Counted from the first letter of the whole stretch, positions 11,590 to 46,746 are shown. The stretch is DNA of 58,331 nt, filler included, from Sphacelaria rigidula (GCA_964200075.2; 5 parts of 5 records of this genome joined end to end with filler, not necessarily neighbours in it), one strand, 5' to 3'. A program made the numbers and translations. The notes: generated by a model from the letters alone, not told the origin.

Positions 11590-11689
11590 NNNNNNNNNNN
11601 NNNNNNNNNNNNNNNNNNNNNNNNNNNNNNNNNTTAATTAATTAANNNNNNNNNNNNNNNNNNNNNNNNNNNNNNNNNNNNNNNNNNNN
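11590..11689. other. Artificial contig linker (44 N + TTAATTAATTAA + 44 N)
   Basis: Six-frame stop linker inside an N-run; identical structure at all four gaps. Confidence 0.97.
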
Positions 11690-23276: not shown

Positions 23277-23376
23277 NNNNNNNNNNNNNNNNNNNNNNNN
23301 NNNNNNNNNNNNNNNNNNNNTTAATTAATTAANNNNNNNNNNNNNNNNNNNNNNNNNNNNNNNNNNNNNNNNNNNN
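23277..23376. other. Artificial contig linker
   Basis: N-run with TTAATTAATTAA. Confidence 0.97.
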
Positions 23377-31900: not shown

Positions 31901-34849
31901 GACCTTATGGGTCCCATCTCCCCTACAGCCATTAGTGGGTTTCGGATGGTTTCAAAGTCTTGAAAATCGATCAGGCCACAAAGTGGAAGGAAATCTTTCC
32001 CCTTCAAGATGAAACACAAACAACGGAATCTCTCAAACTCCTTAACGCGGGGCTTGTGATTTCCTCTGGATATCGCTTGGAACGCGTTAAAGCTGACAAA
32101 GGTTCAGAGTTCACGAGTGCTGAGTTCCGTCAGTACTGTCGGGAGGTCGGGATCAAGCTCGTGTTTGCTTCAACTAACACGCCGCAGCAGATAGGAGACA
32201 ACGAGGGGGCAGGAAAGACGATCGTGGGGATTGTACGCTGCTTGCTCGCGGACTCAGGTCTTCCCAAAACACTCTGGTGGGAGCTGATGCTGACGGCTGC
32301 ATACCTCAGCAACCGGACTCCCCACGTGGCATTGAACAACGACACGCCGTACAAACGCCTCTACGGCAAGGACGCAACCCTCGGGCATTTTCGGACGATC
32401 GGGGCAAGGGCATTCGTGCACGTGGAGACACGCGGCAGGAAGCTGGACCAACGTGCCAAGGAAGGGAGGCTCGTGGGTTACAGCATGGATAGCACGTCGT
32501 ACCGGGTTTACAACCCAGCGACAGGGACTGTAAGGGAGAGCAGGAACGTGATCTTCATCGAGACTCCTTTCGACATGCCTGAACCTGACTTGGCGAATGG
32601 TCTTGAAGAGGGAGAATTCACGTACGACGACGTCGATGACATGATACGGGATGTCCAGAACTATCCATCCAACACCGACCTGAGATCGTCGCCTGCTGCT
32701 GGCCAAGAGGTTCGCAACCCTTCAGTTCGCGTGCTATTCAAACACATCAAGGAGATAACCAACCGCAATGCTGGTATCAACCACACCAACTCCGCGTCTT
32801 CCGAGACCGCACCAACCGACAATCCATGGGGTGATCCACCTGGGGAAGACTCCCCTGGAGGAGATCGCCCTGGTGATTCGCCTGGAGAAGACGGCCCTAC
32901 CCCGTCTGAGGAAGGAAGCCCTGCAGGTACAGGTGGTGGTTCTGAGTCGGGTGGTAGCTCCGGTGATTCGGGGTCTGGTTCGGCGTCGCACGGCGAGGAT
33001 AGCTCCCGCGGAGGTTCCGCGTCACGTGGTGGGCGTGGTGCTCACGGTGGGCGACGTGGCACGGCATCTCGTGGTGGGCGGGGTGGTTCTACACCGCAGC
33101 GTCCTACTACCAGATCGGTGACACAAGGGCCCAACGCAAGGACTCTCCGCGAATTGAAGAAACTTGGACTACACACGAAGGGGGAGAGACAGGACATCGC
33201 CCACAAGGACGAGTTCGTTTACTTCGTCCATTACGCCTATGCAGCGCAAAACGTCCAACAGAAGGTTCCCAGGACATTCAGGGAGGCCATGGAGCTAGCT
33301 GACGCGAAACTATGGCGAGCGGCTACCCGCAAAGAAATGGACAGCTTGGAGGAACTTAGAGTCTTCACGCTGGTCCCGCGCAAGACCGTCCCTACTGGCT
33401 CCAGGATCTACAAGCCTCAATGGGTTTTCAAGATCAAAACCGACAACAGCCACAAAGCGCGCTTGGTACCCGGAATTCGTCGCTCTCGGGTTCGTTCCGT
33501 CCAGTCTGACACGTGTGTTTACATATACAGGAAGAACGACGTAGTCATCATCCTGACTCTCTACATGGACGACCTTCTCCTCGTTGGAGCTGACATCCAG
33601 GTCATCCAGAGCATTAAACAGAAGTTGGTGAAGTGGTTCAAGATGACGGACATGGGAGACGTTTCACTCGTGCTTGGGATGCAGGTTACGCGTGACCGCC
33701 AGGAGAAGACGATCACGATCAGCCAGGAGAAGTACACCAGATCCATCCTGGAGAAGTTTGGCATGGTGGACTGCAAGCCTGTGAGCACCCCCGGTTTCGG
33801 AAAGGAGCTGTCCACCAACCAGCCGGAGGGAACTCTTCTCAACGAGGAAGAACGCAGAGGTTCCAGGCCATAACAGGCTCGGTCATGTACCTAGCCCAGA
33901 TTACGCGCTACGATGTCATGTACAGCACTTGTCAACTTGCTCATGCGATGTCTAAACCGTCGAAAGCGCACATGGGTGCGGCCAAGCACTTGCTTAGGTA
34001 TCTGGCGGGAACCCTAGATTTTTCCCTGGTCTACAAGAAGGGAGGGTTCAAGCTGACAGCCTTCTCTGACTCCAAATGGGGAAACAACCCCGACAGCGGC
34101 AAGTCGACGTCGTGCTACATCATGATGTTCTGCAAGGCTCCCGTAAGTTTCAGGTCGGGTGTTCAAAGTCTTAGGGCAATGTCCACCATGGAGGCGGAGT
34201 TGGTGGCTGCAGCGCTGGCCATAAAGGAAGTGATTTTCCGCTCCAATATGCTGATCAAGCTTGGTTTCGGAAAGGAGGTCGAGAAGGCGCTGCTGTACAT
34301 CGACAACACGGCGACACTGTATGTGATTGGGAACCGCGCGTACAGCTCTCGCACGAAGCATATCGCATTGAGGTTCTTCTACACCCGTGAACTAGTTAAC
34401 GAGGGAAAGATGACGATTCACTACGTCCCCACCGAAGACAACCTAGCTGACATAGGGACGAAGCACTTGACGAAGCTACGTGTTCAGCAACTTCTTCACA
34501 AGTTTAAGAACCTCCGACGCCTTCAACATGATTACTAACTAACAACTTCTTCTGACGTTTTCGTCAACATGGGTACATTATGATATTTTCGTGTTTACAA
34601 TTGAGTAGTCTGTTATGGCTCGCATCATCACTGATCGCTAGAGCACTTTAGCTTTGAATTTAAGAGTATTCTGGTTCATGATACGTTATTTGCAGAAAGT
34701 ATATTAACGCGTGTACGTTAGGTACTCGTAGCACGTAGAAGGAAATATTGTTGGAACGGAATGTATTTAGCGTTTGATTCTCATCGTGTTTCTTTTCCTA
34801 TTTTTATTAGCTTGTTTCTTGATTTCACTGCACTTTCATTGAAGGGGAG
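28928..34849 (+). mobile_element. Ty1/copia retrotransposon copy 2 (PBS, ~1-kb leader, gag-pol pseudogene 29971-34538, PPT)
   Basis: ATG at 29971 (MADSSSTALNRAID), gag knuckles, DSGATEH protease, integrase, RT (KPQWVFKIK, KARLV, YMDDLL) and RNase H (FSDS, STMEAE, ADIGTK), with several stops and frameshifts. Highly similar to copy 1. Confidence 0.95.
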
Positions 34850-34961: not shown

Positions 34962-35061
34962 NNNNNNNNNNNNNNNNNNNNNNNNNNNNNNNNNNNNNNN
35001 NNNNNTTAATTAATTAANNNNNNNNNNNNNNNNNNNNNNNNNNNNNNNNNNNNNNNNNNNN
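34962..35061. other. Artificial contig linker
   Basis: N-run with TTAATTAATTAA. Confidence 0.97.
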
Positions 35062-35165
35062 CCCCCCGCGGCTTCGTTGCCCCGGCCACGGGGGCTTCCG
35101 TCGGTGCCCCCGAATGCGTCACGACCCCCCCCCCCCCCCCCCCCCCCCTCCATAACCATTCGCGC

Positions 35166-38100
35166 ATGAATTACGGAATGGCCACTTTTGGATGCAGGTC
35201 TTCGCCAGAACCGTCGGCGACATCCGCCTCGCCGCAGCTGGATCCTGCCCTGAAGGATCCATCGAGCGCCCCCATCATACCAACGTGGGTCAGTCCTGCA
35301 ACCACCTCACACCGGAAAGCTGCGGGAGCCCGGCTGCGCGTGCGCCGAAGCGGACGTCCCAGGTCCTGGAGGGGGGCGGATGCCAAACTGGGTCAACCGC
35401 CCGGAAGCTGAAGCAAAAGACGACGGATCCCGATGCAACAGATAGTTCTGAAGCCGCTTGGGCTCTGCAGGAGGGGACACCCCCGGCTGCCGTGCCCGCA
35501 TCGACGTTGAGATATAGCCCTGATGCGGGTACGGCAAATAGTCCATCCCCTGCCGCCGACAGCACCCGCCGTCCATCAAAATCGCGGCCGCGATCCACGC
35601 CGGCACGCTTGGAACGGCCGACGACGGCGGCAGATGTAACTAACAATGACGGCGTCGGGCGGCGGTTGAGGCGGAGGGTGCGTGACGGGCAAAACGAACA
35701 GTATACGAGCCTCCCGCCCCCTGAAACACAATAATTTTCACCCGTGCGTACCACAAGGGCAACTTCGGTGCCTGCGAGTCGGAGGGGTGCGCGGAAGCAC
35801 TGCGGCAAGGCGGAACGTGGGGAAGCTGACGGCTGGGTTGTCGGTCTGTGCAGTTGGTGTAAAACCCACCACGCCGAGCCAGACAGACTCTGTGCTGCCT
35901 GCCATCGCCCCGCACGTAAATTCACCCATCTCCTTCCGGCTTCACACGGTCCTGCGGCGGATTTCTTGAACGCGAAGAGGGAACACGGGTCACCAACTGT
36001 GGTCGCCGCTACGTACGAGCCGAAATCGGATATTCTGTGCACGCGCTCCGACTGCTTATATTCCCTGTTTCGGAGTTCAGCTAAAGTAAAGTCAAGGACG
36101 CAGTGGAAGAGGTGTGCCGTGTGCGGGCAATCGCAGCGAAGTAAGGCCGGGGGTGAGACCCGTTGGATCGCCGCCGGTGGTGCAAGCGCCGCTATAACGC
36201 ACTTCTTCACCTTAGGGGTGGGCCACAGCCGGACGACCTTGCTCCTGTCTGCACAGGAGTGCGTGCTGGAGGCGACTAGGACATTGTGCGACCCCTGCTG
36301 CGCCGCGTATCGTAGAAACGTGAAGAACGGGAACGTTAAGCATCAGCAACATACATCTGTCGCCCGTTAACAGCTACCGGCGAAGAAAGGAAAGCTAGTG
36401 TGCCGCACCACAGAGCTCGTGCAGGCCGCGGGGCGTGCGGGAGGTATTGTTCGGAGCGGGGAGGTCGAGGCCTGGGTGGTGGAAACTCGGGAGGAAGAGA
36501 AGCGGCACAAGCTTGGTGCAAAGAGCTTGCGAGCGACTGCTCAGTCAATAATGACAGATATCGGTCACCGCCTCAGCGACGTCACGTTGGTTACTCTGCG
36601 GAAAGACCAACGCTCAGGGGGTGATGCTCGGGAGGTTTACAGGTACCTCGTGCCTCGACTGTCCCGGGCTGAGGGCATTGCGAAGCTCGACCTATTGGCG
36701 ACTAACGCGGCAGAAAAAATTGCCGATCTCGAACGGAGGATCGCCGCGATTAGGGAGGGAGGTGCGGCGGTGGGGACCTCGGCGAATTCGGGCGCTCCCG
36801 TTGCCGCCGCTACTCTTTCTGCCGGCCACCGCTAAGACGTGGTGCAGGAAACCGGTCGGATCGTGCGCGAGGATTTAATAACTTCTGTGACACTCAAAAG
36901 CGTGAGGAGAGCAACAACACACGAGGACGACATCGCCGGGGATCTGCCGCCGCTGCGTGACTATTTCGCGGAGCTACCCCTCTCGCTACGCCTTTCGTTC
37001 CGAGTCGTCTTCCGTTGTGCATTGGCTTTGATGATGCGGGGAATCCTTCGCGGACATAGAGCGTGAGTGAGGCGGACGGCAGCCCACCGGATCCAGTCCC
37101 TCACGCGCGGGGAGACGACAAGACAAAGAAGGAAGAAGTGATGTGGTACGTCCTGGCGACGATCTTCGTCAAAGCCGTGCTGGGGCAGTCGTACAGGGCG
37201 CTCCACGAGTTGATGCTCGCCCAATTGCTGAAATGTCATGGAGGTACCAGGAGAGTGAGCGATTTCCTCGGGACTATTGGCCTGTGCTTGTCTGACAGTC
37301 AATGTGCCAAGCGTGATAACCTCATCATGCGGGCGGCGCTGGACCATGGCGTCATCCCACCATGGATGGACCTGGTAGCCTGCGTCTTCGACAATTGCGA
37401 TATGAAGGCAGAGATGAACCTCATCAGCTCGCAATATTGTCCCTTCATCGGCGCTTTAAGTGTCGGCTTAAAACCCGGGGGCAGAGTTCTCCGGCTGTCT
37501 CCTTACTCTGACTGGACCCCGGTAGATAAACTCACAATGGAGAAAGTCGGGGATGGATTGCCCCGAGACGATACCAGTAACGTGTTCCAGGAGTTTGCGA
37601 TGGACCTATCGGTGAGCGCATGCAGGAGCGCAGATGGATTCCGGAAGGGCGAGAAGACATGCGTGGAGGCAGAGTTCCGCAAGGTGAGGTCTACACGTGA
37701 ATTTGGGTGTTGCAGCCTCGTCTCATCGCCATCTTGGGAGTTACAGTTCCGTAATTTGGGGAGGGGTAGTTTTAGTGCGTGTCGTGATGATGTATTTGTC
37801 GACCGATAACTTTACATGCGCTTGTTGATGAGTCACAAAACCATCGTGTAGCAGCATCGTTTGCGGCCCTGAGTACGATGTCATGGGGTCATGGAGTACA
37901 TGAGAAAGATATGAAAAGCAGCTCCGCCCCAACTTCGCCTACCATGCAAGGTGATGACTCCGCCCCAAATCTCGGAGCTGTAGACGTCGGAATTTGAGTG
38001 GCAATGGCGACGTTTGACTCCAGGCCGGGCGAATTCAGGATCCATTTTTGTGAACTCCTGCGTCAGTGATCGGGTGATGCACATGTTCTTCTGCACTTTC

Positions 38101-41100
38101 TTGCGTGAAGACACCGATTTGAACCACGTCGGGCACGCACACATTTCCTTACAGTTTTCTCGTATTTTTTGGGCAGTTCTGTACCGTATAAACCATTTCG
38201 GAATGACTGCGCGGTTACGTTTGCGATTCAACATCTTTTGACCGTTCATGTACGTTTCGACTGCAGCACGCCTTGCGCTGAACCATCGCAATAGACGATG
38301 CAAGATTGTACAATCCCAGCTAAAAACGGGTACCCCGTCGGAGTACCAACCAAGGCCACATTTCCTCCAACGGATCGCAATGAACTATACACATATTAAT
38401 CAAGTGCAGAAGTTGTCGGCAACCTCATTCTGAATCGAGGCGACGACCACCGCTGACACTTTCTACGATAGCCCCCCCCGAAAACCAGCTTAGAAGTGTC
38501 ACGAAAGAAAAGGCCATACAACGCGTGATCTTTGATTTCAGGCAGCATGAAGCGCCCCATATTGACGACATCGTCTAGAACGAACCCAAGCGTGGAAATT
38601 CCCAGCTGTTCGCTGTGTTCGGCGTTTCCCAATTCGGTTTACGTGAAGATTTTGCCCATCAAAACCATGCACTTTTGGGGGGGGGGGGCATCGTAGAAAG
38701 TGTCCGCTGTTCCGCCGTTCATTTGCGGTCAGGATCATGAACCAGAGGAGCGCATGCCGCAAGAAACCGTGCACATGTTCATCCAAGAGGGGTCCACAAA
38801 GGATTACAATGCCATGGAGCGCGCTCTTCAACGGATATGCCATATGCGGCGTCTGGGCGAGCCCGGTGGCCGCAATCGTGCGGTCTTGGGCAGGGGACGA
38901 GGAAACGTTCACTTGGGTCAGGCGTTATTGCGAGATGCATCCCGAGTATTTGGAAATGTTGCTGGTATGGCCCGGCGACTTGCACATCCTCTTCCAGCTC
39001 GCGAAGGCGTCGCTGAAACACAACTGGGGAGCCAGCATTGAACTCGTGGCCAACGACCTCGGGGGTGACGACGCCAAAGCCGCAGATGGAAGTAACTACC
39101 GGCGGGCGCACCACCACATCTCCGTACTGTACGAGTGTTCCATGATCGTCATCACGGAGGTAGTGTAAAATGAGTTGGGGTCTAGCGAGAAGGCGCTGAG
39201 GGCGCTCAGCAGGTGAAGGAATGGATCGAGTGCCGAGCGCAAACACACAAGACCTTCAGGTTTTGGTCCCGATTCCTTCTCGTAGACTATTCCGCATACG
39301 CAGGTGTTCGCATGAGTGTACGCACTGAAAATCTCAAGCTGCGGAAAGCCTGTTTGCGTTTGGCGGCGGCGATATGCTGCGGATACGGGAAAGAAAATAT
39401 CAGACGAAAATCGCCGGTCACCTCGGAGACGTGACACGCATGACTGACGGCGATCACGAAGCGATGTCGGAAATGTTTCCCACGTCGTTGGGCGGCGACG
39501 CTTTCTCTCGCGTCGTCTTGGACGAGCGGCAAGAAATAGCCAATCGCGGCTACAAGGGAGCGACGAAGAAAATCATCCGAGACTTCGTGAACTAGCTGGC
39601 CGCTATTGTCGGCGAGCGGGAGAGCACCATCGCTAAGATCGAGGAGGCTTTCTTTCCGGGGACAAGGCAGCGCGATGGGGAGGCAATGCTTGTCAAGAAA
39701 CGTCAGCCTGCCGTCGTCAAGGCCATGAAAGTGGTGCCGGGGTGCCTGGCGTTTCGTGACGACGGCGCAGATGCCCTCGTGGCGCTGGACGGTCGGGTGC
39801 TCACGAGTCAGGAAGGAGACGAGATCCTTGACGTTGCGCGACGCTGTGACGAGCTCTGGGCCGGTGTGGTCAAGAGGGTAGTATTGAAGGACAAGTCGGA
39901 GAAGGGCGCGACGAAAACCAAACTGAAGTCTTTGCCCCCTGCGCGCACTAGCAACAAGCCCACAAAAGAGGAGAGGTGATCTTCCGCCTTGAAGAAGAGC
40001 GTGAGCAGTATCACCGTGCAATCCCTCGACCAGCATCGGATCCTCACTTCGATCCTGAGCCGTGGCCAGGACCTGAAGCCGGACGCGTTGATGCGAACTG
40101 TGCTGGAGATCGGGGCTGTTGTTCCGCAGTCCATCGCCACCGAGCATGGAGGTAAATGACGTGAATGTGCATTTTGTTGCCTCGTGTCTGTACTGTGTCC
40201 CGTGAGGACAAGATGTCACCAACCTAGTGACCCTCACCCGTGGTCGCACAAACGTTGCGCATGGAGTGGAGTGCAGTTCGTGCACCATAGGTGTATCGCG
40301 CAAGGTACACACTGCCAAACAACCAGTATAGGTGCCTCAGCGAGGTACGAGAAACGTACTTATTTTCACACGCTCCCAGTGATTTACCTGCGTGCATATT
40401 TTGGGGGATTCGCAATTTACAGTAATTTGCGAGAGTAGCTTCCCTCGTCGCCATTGAAACAGGATTTCACAGATTCCGGGTAGAGCACCACCTCGGCCGT
40501 GCGGCAGCTCACTTGTTACTTACGCGCGGTGTGCAGGTGGTGCGGGGCCGATCCTCACGGCCCCTGTGCTGTAATCATTTCGCATTTTGGTCACGATCAC
40601 CACTGCGCGTTCACGGACCGCTTTGCAAAACTCAAATGACAAATTGTATAGCTACAGCGATTTACGGTTGCTTCCCGGTGGCATGTGTCAGCCCCGTGGC
40701 ACTGGAAGCACGAGGGAGTAGTGACGCGATCCCTCTATGAACTCAACACCGGGAGTAGCTAAACACTACACTGTCGCCCTCATCGTCCCCTTCCACAGAT
40801 GAGACACGGCAACAGACCACTGGGGCCAAGAACCTTCATCGAGAAAACGTGCTCGGATGCCGTCCAAGAATATTTGTTCCATGCATCAGAGGGACACGCG
40901 ATAGATTTTGCCGTGTGAGCTCCACAAGCCGCCGCCACTTGGTATTCTCGCCGGCGGCGACGCAGCTGTCGTGGAATATCATCGCCGGAAGATCATGGCG
41001 AACTGCGGTGATGGTGTGAAGTTTGTCGCCGTCTGTTACGACCGGGCGGAATTTGTGCCGCCAATAAAGGCGCATGAGCAAGCTGGGAGAAAGGCAAAAG

Positions 41101-43456
41101 TGAAGACATGCGACCGGGAGTTTGACCCGAGGAGCACTGACGGGCTACCCTCCGGTCCAGATTTTCAGGCATATACCCGGGTGCCGGGGAACCGATCCGC
41201 CATGGCAAGGGCCATCTGCGAGTATACTCTCGGCCACCCGGGTGCGCTTCTCGCGAAAGGGACGGTGCTGATGTTTTATGGGGTGGACACTCCCATAATG
41301 CGCCCGGGAGATACCCGTGGAGAAGAGCAGACACAATCCCCGATTGACCACGGATCTATAGCTGGCGGCACCTCCTCGGACCGGGGAGGCAGAGCAGGGG
41401 GCAATATTGCTCCAATGCTGTCACATAGTGCTATGATTCCACCCAGCACGCGGGCGGATGGGTGAGTTGGAGTCGCGGAGACCCTCCGATATGCGCCTGA
41501 CACCGAGAACACTGCGCCGGGCATACGGAGCACCCCTCTGCGACTGGCCCCCGCGACTGCATATTGCTCGCTGGCCGTCGCGGGTGCGACGCCGAACCGC
41601 CTCATGCCCCACCCCAGCGCGTGGTTTGGGGCAGGGGAGGAGACTGTGCAACCGGTGGTCGTAATCCCGCTTGTAGACGATCGCCCGCCACTGGGTCATT
41701 TCCCCGCGAACACTCCCCCCGGCCCGTGGTGTGTTACTGGAGGCAAAGAGCCGGAGGCGGGTCTCCGGTCGAGGGCGACCTCCAGTGTTCCGATAACTTT
41801 GTCTCCGGTGCTGGGTGTACTCGCTCCATCACAAGCGAACTACGGCGGTAATTACATGCCCGCGGCCATGTTCTCAGGGGACATGGCATGCGCGTTCCCC
41901 AGCCCTCTCCTTGAAGATGAAAGGATCGCTAATCCGCGGAGGGGAGAACAGGATATCGCGATGACATCCTCCGCCGATGGAACGCACCCTAGGGTTATGT
42001 CAGCGGATTCTACGGCCGGCACCCGCCCGAACGACGCCGGTTCTAGCAGCGCAGGGGAGGCGGGTGAGGATGGCGCAGCGTCTCCGAGTATACTCCTTTG
42101 GCGCAACGGTGGAGACGAGGACGGGCTCGTCCATCATGCACTTGGTCCGCAAATTGGGGAGGGAGAGCTGGCAGCCGTGCATTTCATGATTCACCAAGCG
42201 AAATACGGAGGTGATGGCGAGACCAGGATCCGGAGATGGACGCTGACGTCTATAGACACAGATATACTCATGATTGTATTGCTTGTTATGGCGACGGGCG
42301 AGATCGCCGCCGAGGGCCATAAACGCACGAGCGTCACCCTGCGCCGTTGGCTGTGAAAGGCACGGAATATATCTTCATAAATCGAGTCTATGGAGCCGTG
42401 ACCGATCTCGCCGACGGCGCTCACGGCGCTTGGGAAGGAAGCAGCACGTGGGTTCATGAAACGCCGGGGATGAGGGTTACCCCCTTCTTGTTGGTGTATT
42501 TACTGAGTGGGTGTGACTTCCTCCCTTGCTTCCACGTGCTATCTTTCCTCGCTACGTCGAATGCTTTCCTGAGAGGTCTGCGTGTCCCGGATCTTTTTCC
42601 GAAGCCGATCCTGTGGATCGAGGGCAGTAAGGTGACAGTCGACGAGGACGAAGTGTTAGAGTTCCTCGCCGTCGCCTTCCACTACAAGACAGAAACGGCA
42701 TTCGCGGCAGAGAAAGGAAGCGCGGAAGACATCCCCCGCAACCGGGCGGGGAAGGATATTACAGTGTTCGTGAACTGGGCGCGGATTTTGAGTTGGGAAA
42801 TGAGCTATAAGAAGCCTGCTGAGTTGGTGCCGCCCGCCGAGTCCTTGCGCTTCCAAGCGAACCGCGCGGGTGCCGTCACGGAATACTGGATGGGGGGGAT
42901 GGCGGACTCCATGCCCGCCGCGGAGTTTTGCGGTCGAGGATGGAATACGACCGGCGAACGCAGAGGGAAGCGTCTTGTGAAAAAGAATATTGTTGTTAAC
43001 CTATCGGATCACGCGTACATCGACCCCGCGGGGAAGACCAAACGGTTTTTGTGCAGATGTAACCCCGTGGCCTCCGAGAAGCACAAATGCGAGCGATCTT
43101 GTACGTGCGCCAGGCTGGGTGAAGATCATCACCCCTTCTTGTGTAGGTGCGAGGGGCGGTGCCTTGCGCCCGCTCCTGAGACGCGCGGATCGCCCCCTGA
43201 AAGATTACGAAGTGAAGGGTCACCAACTTGAGGTATCTCCAGTCGAGAACTGCCGACCGAAGGGATATCCAGTGATGGGTTCCCCAGTCGAGGCTCCCAG
43301 ACCGAAGGGTTGCCCACTGAAGGGTCACTCATTGAAGGGTTATTCGAGGAAGGATTTGGAATAGAGGAGTGGGATCTCAGCGAGTCGGGGGATAACAGGA
43401 GCTCGCCGGGCTCAACGGGTGAAGATACAGGATCCGAGTTTGGTTACGGCTGGTGA
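35166..43456 (+). mobile_element. Degenerate AcademX-like DNA transposon gene (Cys-rich N-terminus, Academ-type DDE transposase, XPG/PIN nuclease, Cys-rich zinc finger), with spliceosomal introns
   Basis: ORFs 35192, 35744, 36398 and 36839 share one frame broken by stops. Transposase motifs: VACVFDNCD, AGDEETF, WPGDLH, GSNYRRAHHH, FWSRFL, YGKENYQ, VVLDERQEIANR, VPQSIATEHG. Nuclease motifs: VAVCYDR...PIKAHEQ, GEGELAAVH, TSIDTDIL, LLSGCDFLP. C-terminus CRCN...CERSCTC...LCRCEGRC. Probable introns 37684-38732 and 40152-40798. Confidence 0.8.
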
Positions 43457-43983
43457 TCGGAGTCGTGTTGTGATTCCGAGGGACCCGGGGGCGGGGACGA
43501 GGGGGTTAGACATTTGGCACGATCTACACTCGCGTGACAGAGTGGAAGTGATGCTGAAGTGAGTTGCTGCTCAAACACGAGGTAATACGGAGGCGCCGTC
43601 ATGAAGATCATGTGCTACGCACATGTATGATTTGCTGTATTTGTGTCTTGAGGTCGGTATCGCACCCGTAGCAATGCTGTGTCCAACTACTCGCCAGATG
43701 GTGGCTCGGTGTGAACAGATGGGGTTCCGTTGATGTAGTTCTAGACTATCCACGCATCGGTTTGGCTCAAGCCTGAAAATCAAAGAGTATCTACACACCA
43801 GCGCCGCTCAAGCCAGAAACAAATCCGTGTTTTTGCTTCTGGAACTGAGAATGTCGGCAGGGAATATGTCAGGAGAGTGTACCTTACAAGAAGCAACAAC
43901 AAATTTATGTACAAATGCTTTTATTTTATCGTTGTGCGTCGATTCACGGCCCAAAAGAGAGGTAGGCGAAGTTTGACAATCTA

Positions 43984-44461
43984 AGGCCGCTTCTTATAGA
44001 CTGAAAGAAATCTGTCTGATGACTGCCCTTTTGAACCCTTCATCACGGAGTATTGGCGGAATACGGGCCTTGGCGGATTTCCCCCCTCGGAAAGATTTAC
44101 TATATGTTTCACGAGGATTCTAGCGCACTTTTCCGATTGCTTGTACGCCCAGTTTTACCTTTGACCGGATCCTGACTTCGTACAGTCACCCCAAAAAACT
44201 TCGAGTTGTCGGTAAAAAGTACGTATTTTCCCCGACAACTGGACGGTTTTCGCGGCGACTGAAAAAATTCGAGATCCGGTCAAAAGTAAAACTGGGCGTC
44301 GAAACAATCGGAAAAGCGCGCTAGAATCCTCGTGAAGCATGTAGCAGATCTTTCCGAGGAGGCCAAATCCGCTAAGGCCCGTATTCCGCCAGTAATCCGT
44401 GATGAAGGGTTCAAAAGGGCAGTTATCAGACAGATTTTTTTCAGTCTATAAGAAATGGCCT
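43984..44461. mobile_element. MITE with ~190-bp TIRs and TA target-site duplication
   Basis: TA|AGGCCGCTTCTTATAGACTGAAA...TGACCGGATC (43984-44171) is the imperfect reverse complement of GATCCGGTCA...TTCAGTCTATAAGAAATGGCCT|TA (44273-44461); ~100-bp spacer. Confidence 0.85.
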
Positions 44462-46064
44462 TAGGTTGACAAGCTCTACTCCTAGACGCGGTTTCACGAT
44501 GTATTGGTGTTCGGCGATGACCTTTTTTTTCTTGGTGCACAAGCATACATTTCTGTCGAAGTATGATCTCGAACATTCGAATCTAGAAAATATCGCCATT
44601 TTTTTGGCAGTCTTTACCGTCTGTGGACCAGACAGCTGGTTTCGTAAAACAAATTACTGCTGCCACCGGAGGATGCTTCTCCGTCGTAAACCCCCCAACA
44701 CGAGGCGAGGATCTCATTCCCACATGTAAGACTCCGCTTCTTTCAGGGCATCGACCGCTGAAGAAGGACCGTAAAAACATTCACCCATAACGACCACCGT
44801 CAGCTGCGCCACGGAAAAGCAAAGAAGACCGCGCAAAATTTGCGGATCCACTCAAAAGTGCAGACATCGTCTGCGTCACTTTCCTCGTGATACGTAATAC
44901 TACGCTGTTGCGCTTTTCTCCATCCATGGATTCTGTGCTTACAACGACGGATCCGAAGTGGTCGCGGGGTGGGGGGTTCTGTGAACGGAATACTTGCGCC
45001 CTTTCGCAACAGAGAATACACCTCACGAACTTCACACGTGATGCAAATGAAGAACGGATCGCACCGAGGGGGAGAAAACACAATCAGTTGCATCGTTTGA
45101 AGGAGTCGTTGGAGGGGAGCTCCAGCGTCATTTCGCTGTTGCAGCCATGGAGACACTGGCCATGTCGGTACCATCCTCTTGTGTGACACCCGTGATGCAT
45201 GATTTCAATACGAGATAGCACTCGTTCCATCGTCCGACTGCATTGCCCCGTGCTTGCCGTCGATCGCGCCTTTGCCGTCAGGTGACCACAGGGATGGGCG
45301 CCGAGGGGTGTCGCGGATGATGTACATAAGCTCAGAATGGCGCCAGGCTGGGTACGGTGTGCGTTCCTACCTACGCTCAACGAATTGATCACCCGTGTTT
45401 GAAGCGTTGGTTAGGCATGTGGTTTATGTTTCTGCGGCTTTTGTGACGGAGTCGGTGAAGACAGGTCTACCGGGTGTCCTTTATCGTGCGATTATGCGGT
45501 TACAGGCGCACGCAATAGCCCGCTATCGATCGACGCCGGAGCGGAGTCCGTCCTGGCGCCGCCACTTAAAATACAGGTCGCAGTTGTTGTTGCCATGGCT
45601 ACGGTTTGAGGGCTAGGTGAAGTTAAGTCGGAGAGTCAGGTCCTTTCTGGCGAAAGTGAAGGCAGCACATAGGGTTGACTTCTTCTGGAAGTGCTCTGTG
45701 GGGTATATCGTCTTCATTCATGGTGCTTCCTAAGAAGGAAAAAAAAAACACTGGCAAATCTCCTTCCGAACCAACGCTGGCATGATCGGAGCGCGCTTCC
45801 ATGCTCCGACAGACGGCCGGACTAGAATGTTCGAAAATAAAAACGTGCAGTCGTTAACCTCGCATCAATCGACAGTTTGTCCGCAGACACCCCACGGGGC
45901 GGCGAAAAAATAAATTCTGGACACGTAAGCCCCAAAATCGAAATTTCGACATTTTGAGGGGGGGGGGGGGGGAGGACCCCCAGCCGTTCGTCCCCTGCTT
46001 TGTTGCCGAAGCGTTGGCGGATGCGGGCAGCCGCCGTAGACAGAGGTCCTTGGGACGAAGACCT

Positions 46065-46530
46065 GATGCCATCGGGACAGAACAGGTAAGGAGCAGGAGC
46101 AATTATATAACCCCCGAAAAGCCTTGGTGGCTTTTCTGTTTATGTCAGTGTTCATTGATCAATTTCTTGCAACAAAATTAACGGGAAAAATAAAAAGCAG
46201 GAGATTTTTCGAAAAGATGCCCTCCGGCATCTGAGCTAATCGGGGCAGAGGGGGCAAGGAGCAGGAGCAGACAAACAAACCCCGCAAAGCCCACCAGATC
46301 TTTCGGCTTTGTCAGCGTTTATTGATCAATTTCTTGCAACAAACTTAACGGGAACAATAAATCAGGGGATTTTTCGAAAAGATGCCCTCCGGCATCCGAG
46401 CTCATCGGGACAAAGGGGGCAAGGAGCAGGAGCAGACAAACAAACCCCGCAAAGCCCACCAGACTTTTCGGTTTTGTCAGCGTTTATTGATCAGTTTCTT
46501 GCAACAAAATTGACAACGTAAATAAAGAAA
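46065..46530. repeat. Tandem repeat, ~2.7 copies of ~170-185 bp
   Basis: Recurring AAGGAGCAGGAGCA...CCCCG(C)AAAGCC...TTGATCAATTTCTTGCAACAAA...TTTTTCGAAAAGATGCCCTCCGGCATC. Confidence 0.85.
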
Positions 46531-46646
46531 ACCATGAATATTTCGGGAAATTGCTCCCCGGGGGAGGGTGCGGGGAGGTAGGGGGGGGGGGGGGGGGACA
46601 GGGGTCCCCAAATTTTCTCGCCGGTGCCCCCTGAAAACACCCACCC

Positions 46647-46746
46647 NNNNNNNNNNNNNNNNNNNNNNNNNNNNNNNNNNNNNNNNNNNNTTAATTAATT
46701 AANNNNNNNNNNNNNNNNNNNNNNNNNNNNNNNNNNNNNNNNNNNN
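46647..46746. other. Artificial contig linker
   Basis: N-run with TTAATTAATTAA. Confidence 0.97.

Follow-up and report, generated by a model that had tools for sequence, protein, structure and literature searches.

A decayed multidomain gene in a brown alga

The stretch of DNA analysed here, hereafter the window, comprises 58,331 nucleotides from Sphacelaria rigidula (GCA_964200075.2), and between positions 35156 and 43456 its plus strand carries a chain of 15–16 open reading frame (ORF) pieces, which join into the remnant of one large gene of ~2,000 codons. In order, this gene encodes a zinc-ribbon-like N-terminal region, a transposase-like core, a linker, a 5′-nuclease and a terminal Cys cluster; coordinates below are on the plus strand unless stated otherwise. 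An earlier description made from the sequence alone, which we refer to as the initial annotation, had proposed a single large decayed gene at this locus, and such a gene is present, its frames continuing from piece to piece and its parts matched by homologues; every motif then named could be located in the window, whereas the count of ~12 ORF fragments proved too low. The window itself is made of five pieces of 11,589, 11,587, 11,585, 11,585 and 11,585 bases, separated by four identical linkers (44 N, TTAATTAATTAA, 44 N) at 11590–11689, 23277–23376, 34962–35061 and 46647–46746, and their near-equal sizes suggest that the pieces were adjacent contigs in an assembly sorted by length. Since the window consists of joined contigs, features on either side of a linker are physically unlinked; the gene remnant lies entirely on the fourth piece, contig 4 (35063–46646, about 11,585 bases).

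As judged from the sequence, the ORF chain descends from a genuine coding sequence and does not simply reflect GC content, because one protein (P0001) and the 65 proteins found by phmmer, both described below, align to its pieces. The reading path begins in frame 1 (35156–37063, with three in-frame TAA stops), passes to frame 0 (37060–37806), runs through frames 2, 0, 2 and 1 across 38733–39592, continues in frame 1 to 40156 and ends in frame 2 (40905–42353, with a TGA at 41463) and frame 1 (42323–43228, with an in-frame tail to 43453). Along it there are at least six frameshifts and at least seven premature stops, namely TAA at 35732, 36368 and 36833, TAG at 39593, TGA at 39977 and 41463 and perhaps TGA at 43229. 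Two frameshifts are peculiar to the window copy: in sequencing runs X1 and X3, other contigs are one base shorter at 40906 and carry an additional C after 42358, and both of these differences restore the frame of the homologues (e.g. ...AIDLPCELH...).

Two of the gaps between the ORF pieces (37684–38732 and 40152–40798) are probably spliceosomal introns and not products of decay. The first, of 1049 nt (GTGAGG...CAG, phase 0), begins exactly where homology to P0001 ends, at ...EAEFRK (37683), with GTGAGG following directly; the ORF of P0001 itself enters this GTGAGG and terminates 16 codons on, and the open frame of the window restarts at 38733. The second candidate, of 647 nt, opens with GTAAAT after ...ATEHG and closes with a polypyrimidine tract and CAG before ...RHGNRPLGPRTFIEKTCSDAV..., and P0008, a protein of 414 residues from a Logan contig, has no counterpart of the 647 nt, placing 21 residues between the flanking blocks where the spliced window would have 22. 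The phase of this intron is out by 1 nt, and therefore a further indel or another acceptor is needed. A GTGAGT at 37063 was ruled out as an intron donor, as P0001 reads through it, and a third intron at 41463 (also in a GTGAGT context), covering the spacer at 41466–42140, was dropped, as the protein P0002 matches 41646–42167 evenly.

The N-terminal region and transposase-like core

The N-terminal region (35519–37030, frame 1) corresponds to residues 4–506 of P0001 with 49% identity by tblastn, and contains two zinc-ribbon-like CxxC..CxxC arrangements (35849–35905, and 36107–36127 with 36284–36301) followed by a coiled-coil-like stretch (36677–36751); P0001 gave a weak match to DZR_2, under the Pfam cut-off. 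The first part of the transposase-like core (37015–37683, frame 0) is more closely matched, at 64% identity, by residues 501–729 of the same protein (match 37015–37704), and the shift from frame 1 to frame 0 near 37015–37063 is absent from P0001, whose ORF is continuous there. In this protein of 742 residues from ENA, one ORF thus covers both the N-terminal region and the first half of the core, and it is the only close relative found for the two (phmmer E 1.4e-84).

Within the first part of the core, FDNCDMK (37387–37407) contains the putative first catalytic Asp. The second part (38733–39592), which crosses at least three frameshifts on its path through frames 2, 0, 2 and 1, contains AGDEETF with the putative second Asp (38890–38910), WPGDLH (38968–38994) and LDERQEIANR with the putative Glu (39518–39547). 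The order and spacing of FDNCDMK, AGDEETF/WPGDLH and LDERQEIANR fit a D, D, E (DDE) core. No homologue of this second part was found by the searches made, and its assignment is therefore drawn from the motifs and from continuity of frame.

What points to a particular transposase family is an ESM Atlas feature search made with 37060–37809. Its 30 nearest clusters scored 0.94–0.97 and shared 213–218 of 256 features with the query, their commonest taxa being Cnidaria and Basidiomycota; six of them carry DUF6589 and the other 24 have no common Pfam family. The best DUF6589-bearing cluster scored 0.96, with DUF6589 present in 29% of its members. Pfam gives DUF6589 (PF20231) no function, and we take it to be the Academ transposase. 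Taken together, these features lend weak support to the identification of this half of the gene as a transposase.

The linker and the probable fusion of the two halves

Between the core and the nuclease lies a linker (39596–40151, frame 1), interrupted by in-frame stops at 39593 (TAG) and 39977 (TGA), and its homologue is P0008, residues 18–172 of which align to 39689–40153 with 26% identity (BLASTP E 3e-12). P0008 runs from the linker into the nuclease in one ORF, where it has 43% identity over 40908–41264. On the other side, the P0008 match starts in the frame of the putative Glu motif, one TAG lying between them. That the transposase and nuclease belong to one gene is accordingly well supported by these ORF and frame relationships but not proven, as there is no database protein that spans both halves, a point which counts against a single gene.

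This lack would also be expected if two or more neighbouring genes, one transposase-like and one for the nuclease and Cys cluster, were fused in appearance only, with their boundaries blurred by stops and frameshifts, and the NCBI nuclease gene models P0013 and P0009 do start in the linker. We consider such an arrangement very improbable. It would have to accommodate the single frame that leads from the putative Glu motif into the P0008-homologous linker, the unbroken passage from linker to nuclease in P0008, and the fact that all parts are on one strand and in order, the only gaps being the two intron-like stretches.

The nuclease half and the Cys cluster

The N-terminal part of the 5′-nuclease (40799–41440) has more than 30 homologues by tblastn, and includes HAIDF (40895–40909), read across the private 1-nt frameshift at 40906, and VCYDR..VPPIK..EQAGR (VCYDRAEFVPPIKAHEQAGR, 41031–41090). 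It is followed by a low-complexity spacer (41441–42140) with an in-frame TGA at 41463, to which P0002 aligns without gaps at 62% identity over 41646–42167. The length of the spacer between the nuclease halves is variable, at ~270 residues in the window versus ~50 in Ectocarpus homologues. The catalytic 'I' part and a helical domain then occupy 42144–43050, with a private frameshift near 42354–42358, and contain GPQIGEGEL (42144–42185), TSIDTD (42246–42284) and LLSGCDFLP (42500–42526).

The motif set D, D..K..R, ExE, DxD and GxD presumably maps onto the corresponding residues of FEN1. The nine residues concerned are conserved, in order, as D in 16/20, D in 32/37, K in 33/44, R in 37/44, E in 33/51, E in 32/52, D in 37/44, D in 32/42 and D in 15/19 sequences, and conservation of the D, D, ExE, DxD and GCD columns extends to 62–86% of covering sequences, misaligned fragments counted. 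The last eight of the nine are present in the window copy and the first Asp is read in HAIDF. The catalytic block is covered by 39 sequences (37 from databases and two window pieces) whose median pairwise identity is 40%.

The fold was examined with a model of an intact homologue, P0010 (605 residues), and not with the broken window copy. AlphaFold2, given an alignment of 67 rows, produced a model with a predicted local distance difference test score (pLDDT) of 75 and a predicted template modelling score of 0.76. All 14 Foldseek matches of this model at E <= 1e-3 are XRN1, XRN2 or Rat1 (best E 1e-5), and in a second look with VIA all 50 of the entries shown are 5′-nucleases, with Z-scores of 13.0 for Rat1, 11.9 for EXO1 (260 residues aligned, root-mean-square deviation 3.9), 11.8 for XRN1, 10.4 for FEN1, 10.0 for T5 exonuclease and 9.1 for XPG. 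A search of 48,161 chains made independently of Foldseek gave a similar picture, in which 17 of the 17 chains with Z >= 5 are 5′-nucleases and the next fold has a Z of 4.6; here XRN1 (11.5), EXO1 (10.5), Rat1 (9.9), T5 (9.7), XPG (8.7), GEN1 (8.3) and FEN-1 (8.2) are followed at lower values by T4 RNase H (7.2), ExoIX (6.8) and the Pol I 5′-nuclease (6.2). A FEN/XRN-superfamily 5′-nuclease fold is thus well supported for this half by the predicted structure. The PIN/FEN-like nuclease of the initial annotation is therefore borne out at superfamily level, but its more specific XPG label is not, since XRN-type and XPG-family structures tie within ~1 Z and XPG profile matches are lacking, as detailed below.

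The Cys cluster that the initial annotation had placed at the end of the gene lies at 43052–43162, where nine Cys residues follow the pattern CxC-x9-C-x3-CxC-x7-H-x3-CxC-x3-C. It is kept in P0010, P0013, P0027, P0030, P0034 and P0059, and has a pLDDT of 45–59 in the P0010 model. We call it CXC-like and not a member of CXC, because it is the spacing alone that resembles CXC. After the TGA at 43229 a Glu/Gly-rich tail remains in frame to 43456, and the match to P0013 reaches 43285, so that the position of the true stop is uncertain.

Relatives, host range and copy number

An exhaustive phmmer search with 40905–42356 returned 65 proteins at E <= 1e-3, of which 17 reach E <= 1e-10; one of the 65, P0064, is a spurious match to a bacterial cadherin-repeat protein. 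Among 30 clusters looked up, nine could be named and all nine are Phaeophyceae, the loci being three in Ectocarpus sp. CCAP 1310/34, one in E. siliculosus, two in Pylaiella littoralis, two in Sphacelaria rigidula and one in Hapterophycus canaliculatus, so that paralogues number at least three in Ectocarpus sp., two in Pylaiella and two in Sphacelaria. The label 'algae metagenome' is borne by one sequencing run in which 75% of the words of the stretch are present, and the brown-algal origin suspected from the outset is thus upheld; non-algal contamination is unlikely because of this label and the exclusively phaeophycean named relatives. Piecemeal annotation, also foreseen, is what the NCBI homologues display, as they are entered as 'unnamed' or 'hypothetical' proteins of 148–582 residues. 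Scans for related loci (alignments A4 and A5) found no relatives in metagenome_contigs or viral_contigs.

The sample appears to hold more than the window copy. Exactly matching contigs of run X1 have a depth of 56–81, and the summed depth over the gene is 57–603, i.e. ~1–6 times the exact value and up to 10 times at 42803–43189, although depth summed over contigs cannot be equated with copy number. Diverged contigs with 88–90% identity are present in runs X1 and X3, which suggests a few paralogues in the sample. A tblastn search with all the retrieved proteins revealed no further copy on the other four contigs of the window. Over 35063–35836 and 42803–43963 the summed depth exceeds that in the middle of the gene, a pattern expected of internally deleted copies, for which we count it as weak evidence.

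Is this an Academ transposon?

On balance, we read 35519–43456 as probably the remains of an autonomous cut-and-paste DNA transposon in a brown alga, namely an inactive copy of its one large gene, and we lean, with slightly less assurance, towards its membership of the Academ superfamily. Academ elements have animals, a red alga and fungi as hosts, and the superfamily includes a lineage, AcademX, which was reportedly set out by Kapitonov and Jurka in 2010 and by Kojima in 2020. The initial annotation had called the gene AcademX-like. The domain order of this proposal, with an N-terminal zinc-ribbon-like region, a core, a 5′-nuclease and a Cys cluster, is what we find, but membership of the transposase among Academ proteins was not confirmed. 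According to PMC10045372, AcademX elements are characterised by a nuclease and target site duplications (TSDs) of 3–4 bp, and AcademH elements by a helicase and TSDs of 9–10 bp; as AcademX elements encode a nuclease, it is their architecture that the gene matches.

A number of results weigh against an Academ transposon. Profile matches to DUF6589, XPG and CXC, which the initial annotation would lead one to expect, were not obtained with any of the window pieces or homologues scanned. Pfam hmmscan, run on 13 ORF pieces, on 19 homologues and on nine proteins at E <= 10, gave no match to DUF6589 or to any transposase for window pieces or P0001 even at the latter threshold; no XPG_N, XPG_I or XRN_N was found in window pieces or in the 17 nuclease homologues among the 19; and P0010, P0013, P0034 and the window translation of 42323–43231 had no CXC or TCR match at E <= 10. 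Sequence and profile searches of the PDB returned only spurious weak matches and no transposase for the core, and the search with a 16-sequence nuclease profile found no nuclease. Further homologue searches with the core were empty beyond the P0001 cluster, and the ESM Atlas search with a second core fragment (38713–39168) gave no usable match. AlphaFold2 modelled the core piece P0072, with an alignment of two rows, at a pLDDT of 37, too low to show an RNase-H fold. The structural tie between XRN-type and XPG-family nucleases belongs on this side of the account too. As to the ends of an element, the search for terminal inverted repeats (TIRs) and TSDs proposed in the initial annotation yielded none above chance on contig 4: inverted repeats between 35063–35560 and 43232–44000 score 22, against a mean of 20 and a maximum of 30 in shuffled sequence, comparisons extended to 43200–46646 return only poly-C/poly-G matches, and there is no TSD, no empty site and a low copy number. 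The element ends may be off the contig or hidden by nested repeats.

Some of these observations would suit a transposon gene from outside Academ, of another or a new superfamily (e.g. of the Cys-cluster-associated KDZ/Zisupton type), to which a FEN/XRN-like nuclease was recruited independently in brown algae. No sequence profile links the gene to DUF6589 or Academ, the nuclease lacks an XPG signature and is structurally best matched by XRN1 and Rat1, all named relatives are brown-algal, and the coding length of ~6 kb exceeds the mean of 5,565 bp for full bivalve Academ elements given in PMC10294476. We nevertheless hold this to be unlikely, in view of DUF6589 being the sole Pfam family among the 30 nearest Atlas clusters, with no KDZ, hAT or MULE, the absence of Pfam KDZ or CxC matches, and the combination of a DDE core with a FEN-type nuclease being the one published for AcademX (PMC10045372). 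A related scenario, to which we likewise give a rather low probability, is that of a deep brown-algal DDE lineage whose XRN/FEN-like nuclease was recruited independently of the XPG of animal AcademX, which would make the two a case of convergence in second-strand or flap processing. Under this scenario some copies that are intact and expressed, such as an Ectocarpus 'expressed unknown protein', might remain active or have been domesticated.

Low copy number, spliceosomal introns, and the absence of detectable TIRs, TSDs and insertion polymorphism are also features of ordinary genes, and the source of one Ectocarpus homologue calls it an 'expressed unknown protein'. Could the remnant be a pseudogenised paralogue from a host gene family, whether domesticated from a transposase or never mobile? 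We find this quite improbable, as the family has many, highly divergent members in a single algal class and several paralogues within individual genomes, diverged extra copies occur in the same sample, and the window copy decays freely; the excess of depth towards both ends of the gene over its middle is weak evidence in the same direction.

Returning to an Academ-type transposon gene as the preferred reading, the intact protein would be of ~2,000 residues, encoded with at least two introns, and would carry in order a zinc-ribbon-like/coiled-coil region, a DDE-type core (DNCD...GD...E..NR; probably of the Academ/DUF6589 kind), the linker, a metal-dependent 5′-nuclease split by the low-complexity spacer and the CXC-like cluster. 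The N-terminal zinc-ribbon-like region, perhaps with the Cys cluster, would bind the element ends, the DDE core would cleave and transfer the 3′ ends, and the fused 5′-nuclease may process the complementary strand or flaps at the donor or target, as has been proposed for the XPG nuclease of AcademX elements with a view to their short TSDs (PMC10045372).

Comparison with known systems

The closest known counterpart is AcademX, with which the gene appears to share the presence of a DDE-type transposase and a FEN/XPG-type nuclease in one large element, as well as the DUF6589-type feature signature of its putative core. It differs in its host, a brown alga and thus a stramenopile, in a nuclease which has no XPG_N/XPG_I Pfam match and a fold as near to XRN as to XPG, and in its long N-terminal zinc-ribbon-like region, two probable introns and ~6 kb of coding sequence, with TIRs and a 3–4-bp TSD not found here. 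Provided that the Academ assignment holds, AcademH would have a transposase of the same superfamily, but there the second enzyme is a helicase, of which the gene has none, having a 5′-nuclease instead. The resemblance to DUF6589 itself comes from language-model features, in the six of 30 nearest Atlas clusters that carry it, and stands against the negative hmmscan result.

The nuclease half can be set beside two host families. To the Rad2/XPG family it is linked by the same acidic motif set and by the Z-scores of EXO1 (11.9), FEN1 (10.4), XPG (9.1) and GEN1 (8.3), and as in XPG its N and I regions are held apart by a spacer, whereas it lacks sequence-profile similarity to this family, extends over ~450 residues compared to the ~330-residue FEN1 core, and is fused to a transposase-like core and a Cys cluster. 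XRN1 and XRN2 (Rat1) provide the best Foldseek matches, the top Z-scores (11.5–13.0) and the longest alignments (340–360 residues), but at a root-mean-square deviation of 4.6–5.5 Å, with Z within ~1 of EXO1 and no XRN_N match, and it is hard to see what purpose an RNA exonuclease would serve in a DNA transposon.

Full-text literature searches found no report of Academ for brown or other algae, Ectocarpus or stramenopiles, although a Repbase or Dfam entry could still exist; the suggestion of a possibly undescribed lineage made in the initial annotation is consistent with these searches and could yet be overtaken by an existing repeat-database entry. A paper on Fanzor names Academ in passing only, and a search of the full-text literature for DUF6589 gave nothing relevant. 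The AcademX-type architecture, hitherto described for animal AcademX, is apparently new in brown algae.

If the Academ assignment is true, a little-studied superfamily of DNA transposons is extended to brown algae, and with them to the stramenopiles, and the 'unnamed' and 'hypothetical' proteins of Ectocarpus, Pylaiella, Sphacelaria and Hapterophycus would be fragments of one transposon gene. A nuclease as divergent as this one, with a clear fold and no profile match, offers a case for studying the recruitment of second nucleases by transposases and its relation to target-duplication length. In practice, genome annotation would profit from an improved brown-algal repeat library; the window copy is dead and has no functional significance itself.

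Repeats and other features around the gene

The candidate first intron contains a high-copy miniature inverted-repeat transposable element (MITE) of 250 bp (38455–38704, no strand assigned), flanked on both sides by CGCT, a possible 4-bp target duplication. Its terminal inverted repeats can be taken as a perfect 15 nt (GACACTTTCTACGAT), as 21/23 nt or as a 31-nt arm at 87%, and run into poly-C/poly-G. In run X1 its summed depth is 120,000–299,000, unique sequence having ~60, and loose ends occur at 38455, 38490 and 38704. The terminal repeat of the MITE does not recur at the ends of contig 4 or of the transposon gene.

Long runs of poly-C or poly-G occur at 35126–35151, 45958–45975 and 46581–46597, ~50–60 nt from both ends of contig 4, and could have arisen as artefacts of sequencing or assembly or else belong to the MITE family. 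The unrelated 'algae metagenome' run X5 matches the window solely at the poly-G run.

Opposite the transposon gene, the minus strand has ORFs of 350 codons (35290–36342) and 349 codons (39287–40336), which probably arise as a side effect of the high GC content of the coding strand. On contig 3, the plus strand carries a Ty1/copia-type pol remnant (31936–34538) with Pfam rve, SH3_retrovirus and RVT_2 matches; as it belongs to another contig, it provides no context for the transposon gene.

Just downstream of the gene lies a foldback-like repeat of ~500 bp (43970–44475), whose arms measure 111 nt (91% complementarity) and 137 nt (82% complementarity); it has a summed depth of ~23,000 in X1 and may mask the 3′ end of the element. 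Beyond it, 44738–45898 is moderately repeated, its summed depth of 1,000–2,500 in X1 being ~15–40 times the unique depth. Close to the end of the contig, a tandem repeat at 46070–46526 has a period of 165–168 bp and about three copies; its summed depth reaches 35,000–67,000, many contigs jump between its copies, and it is probably a satellite.

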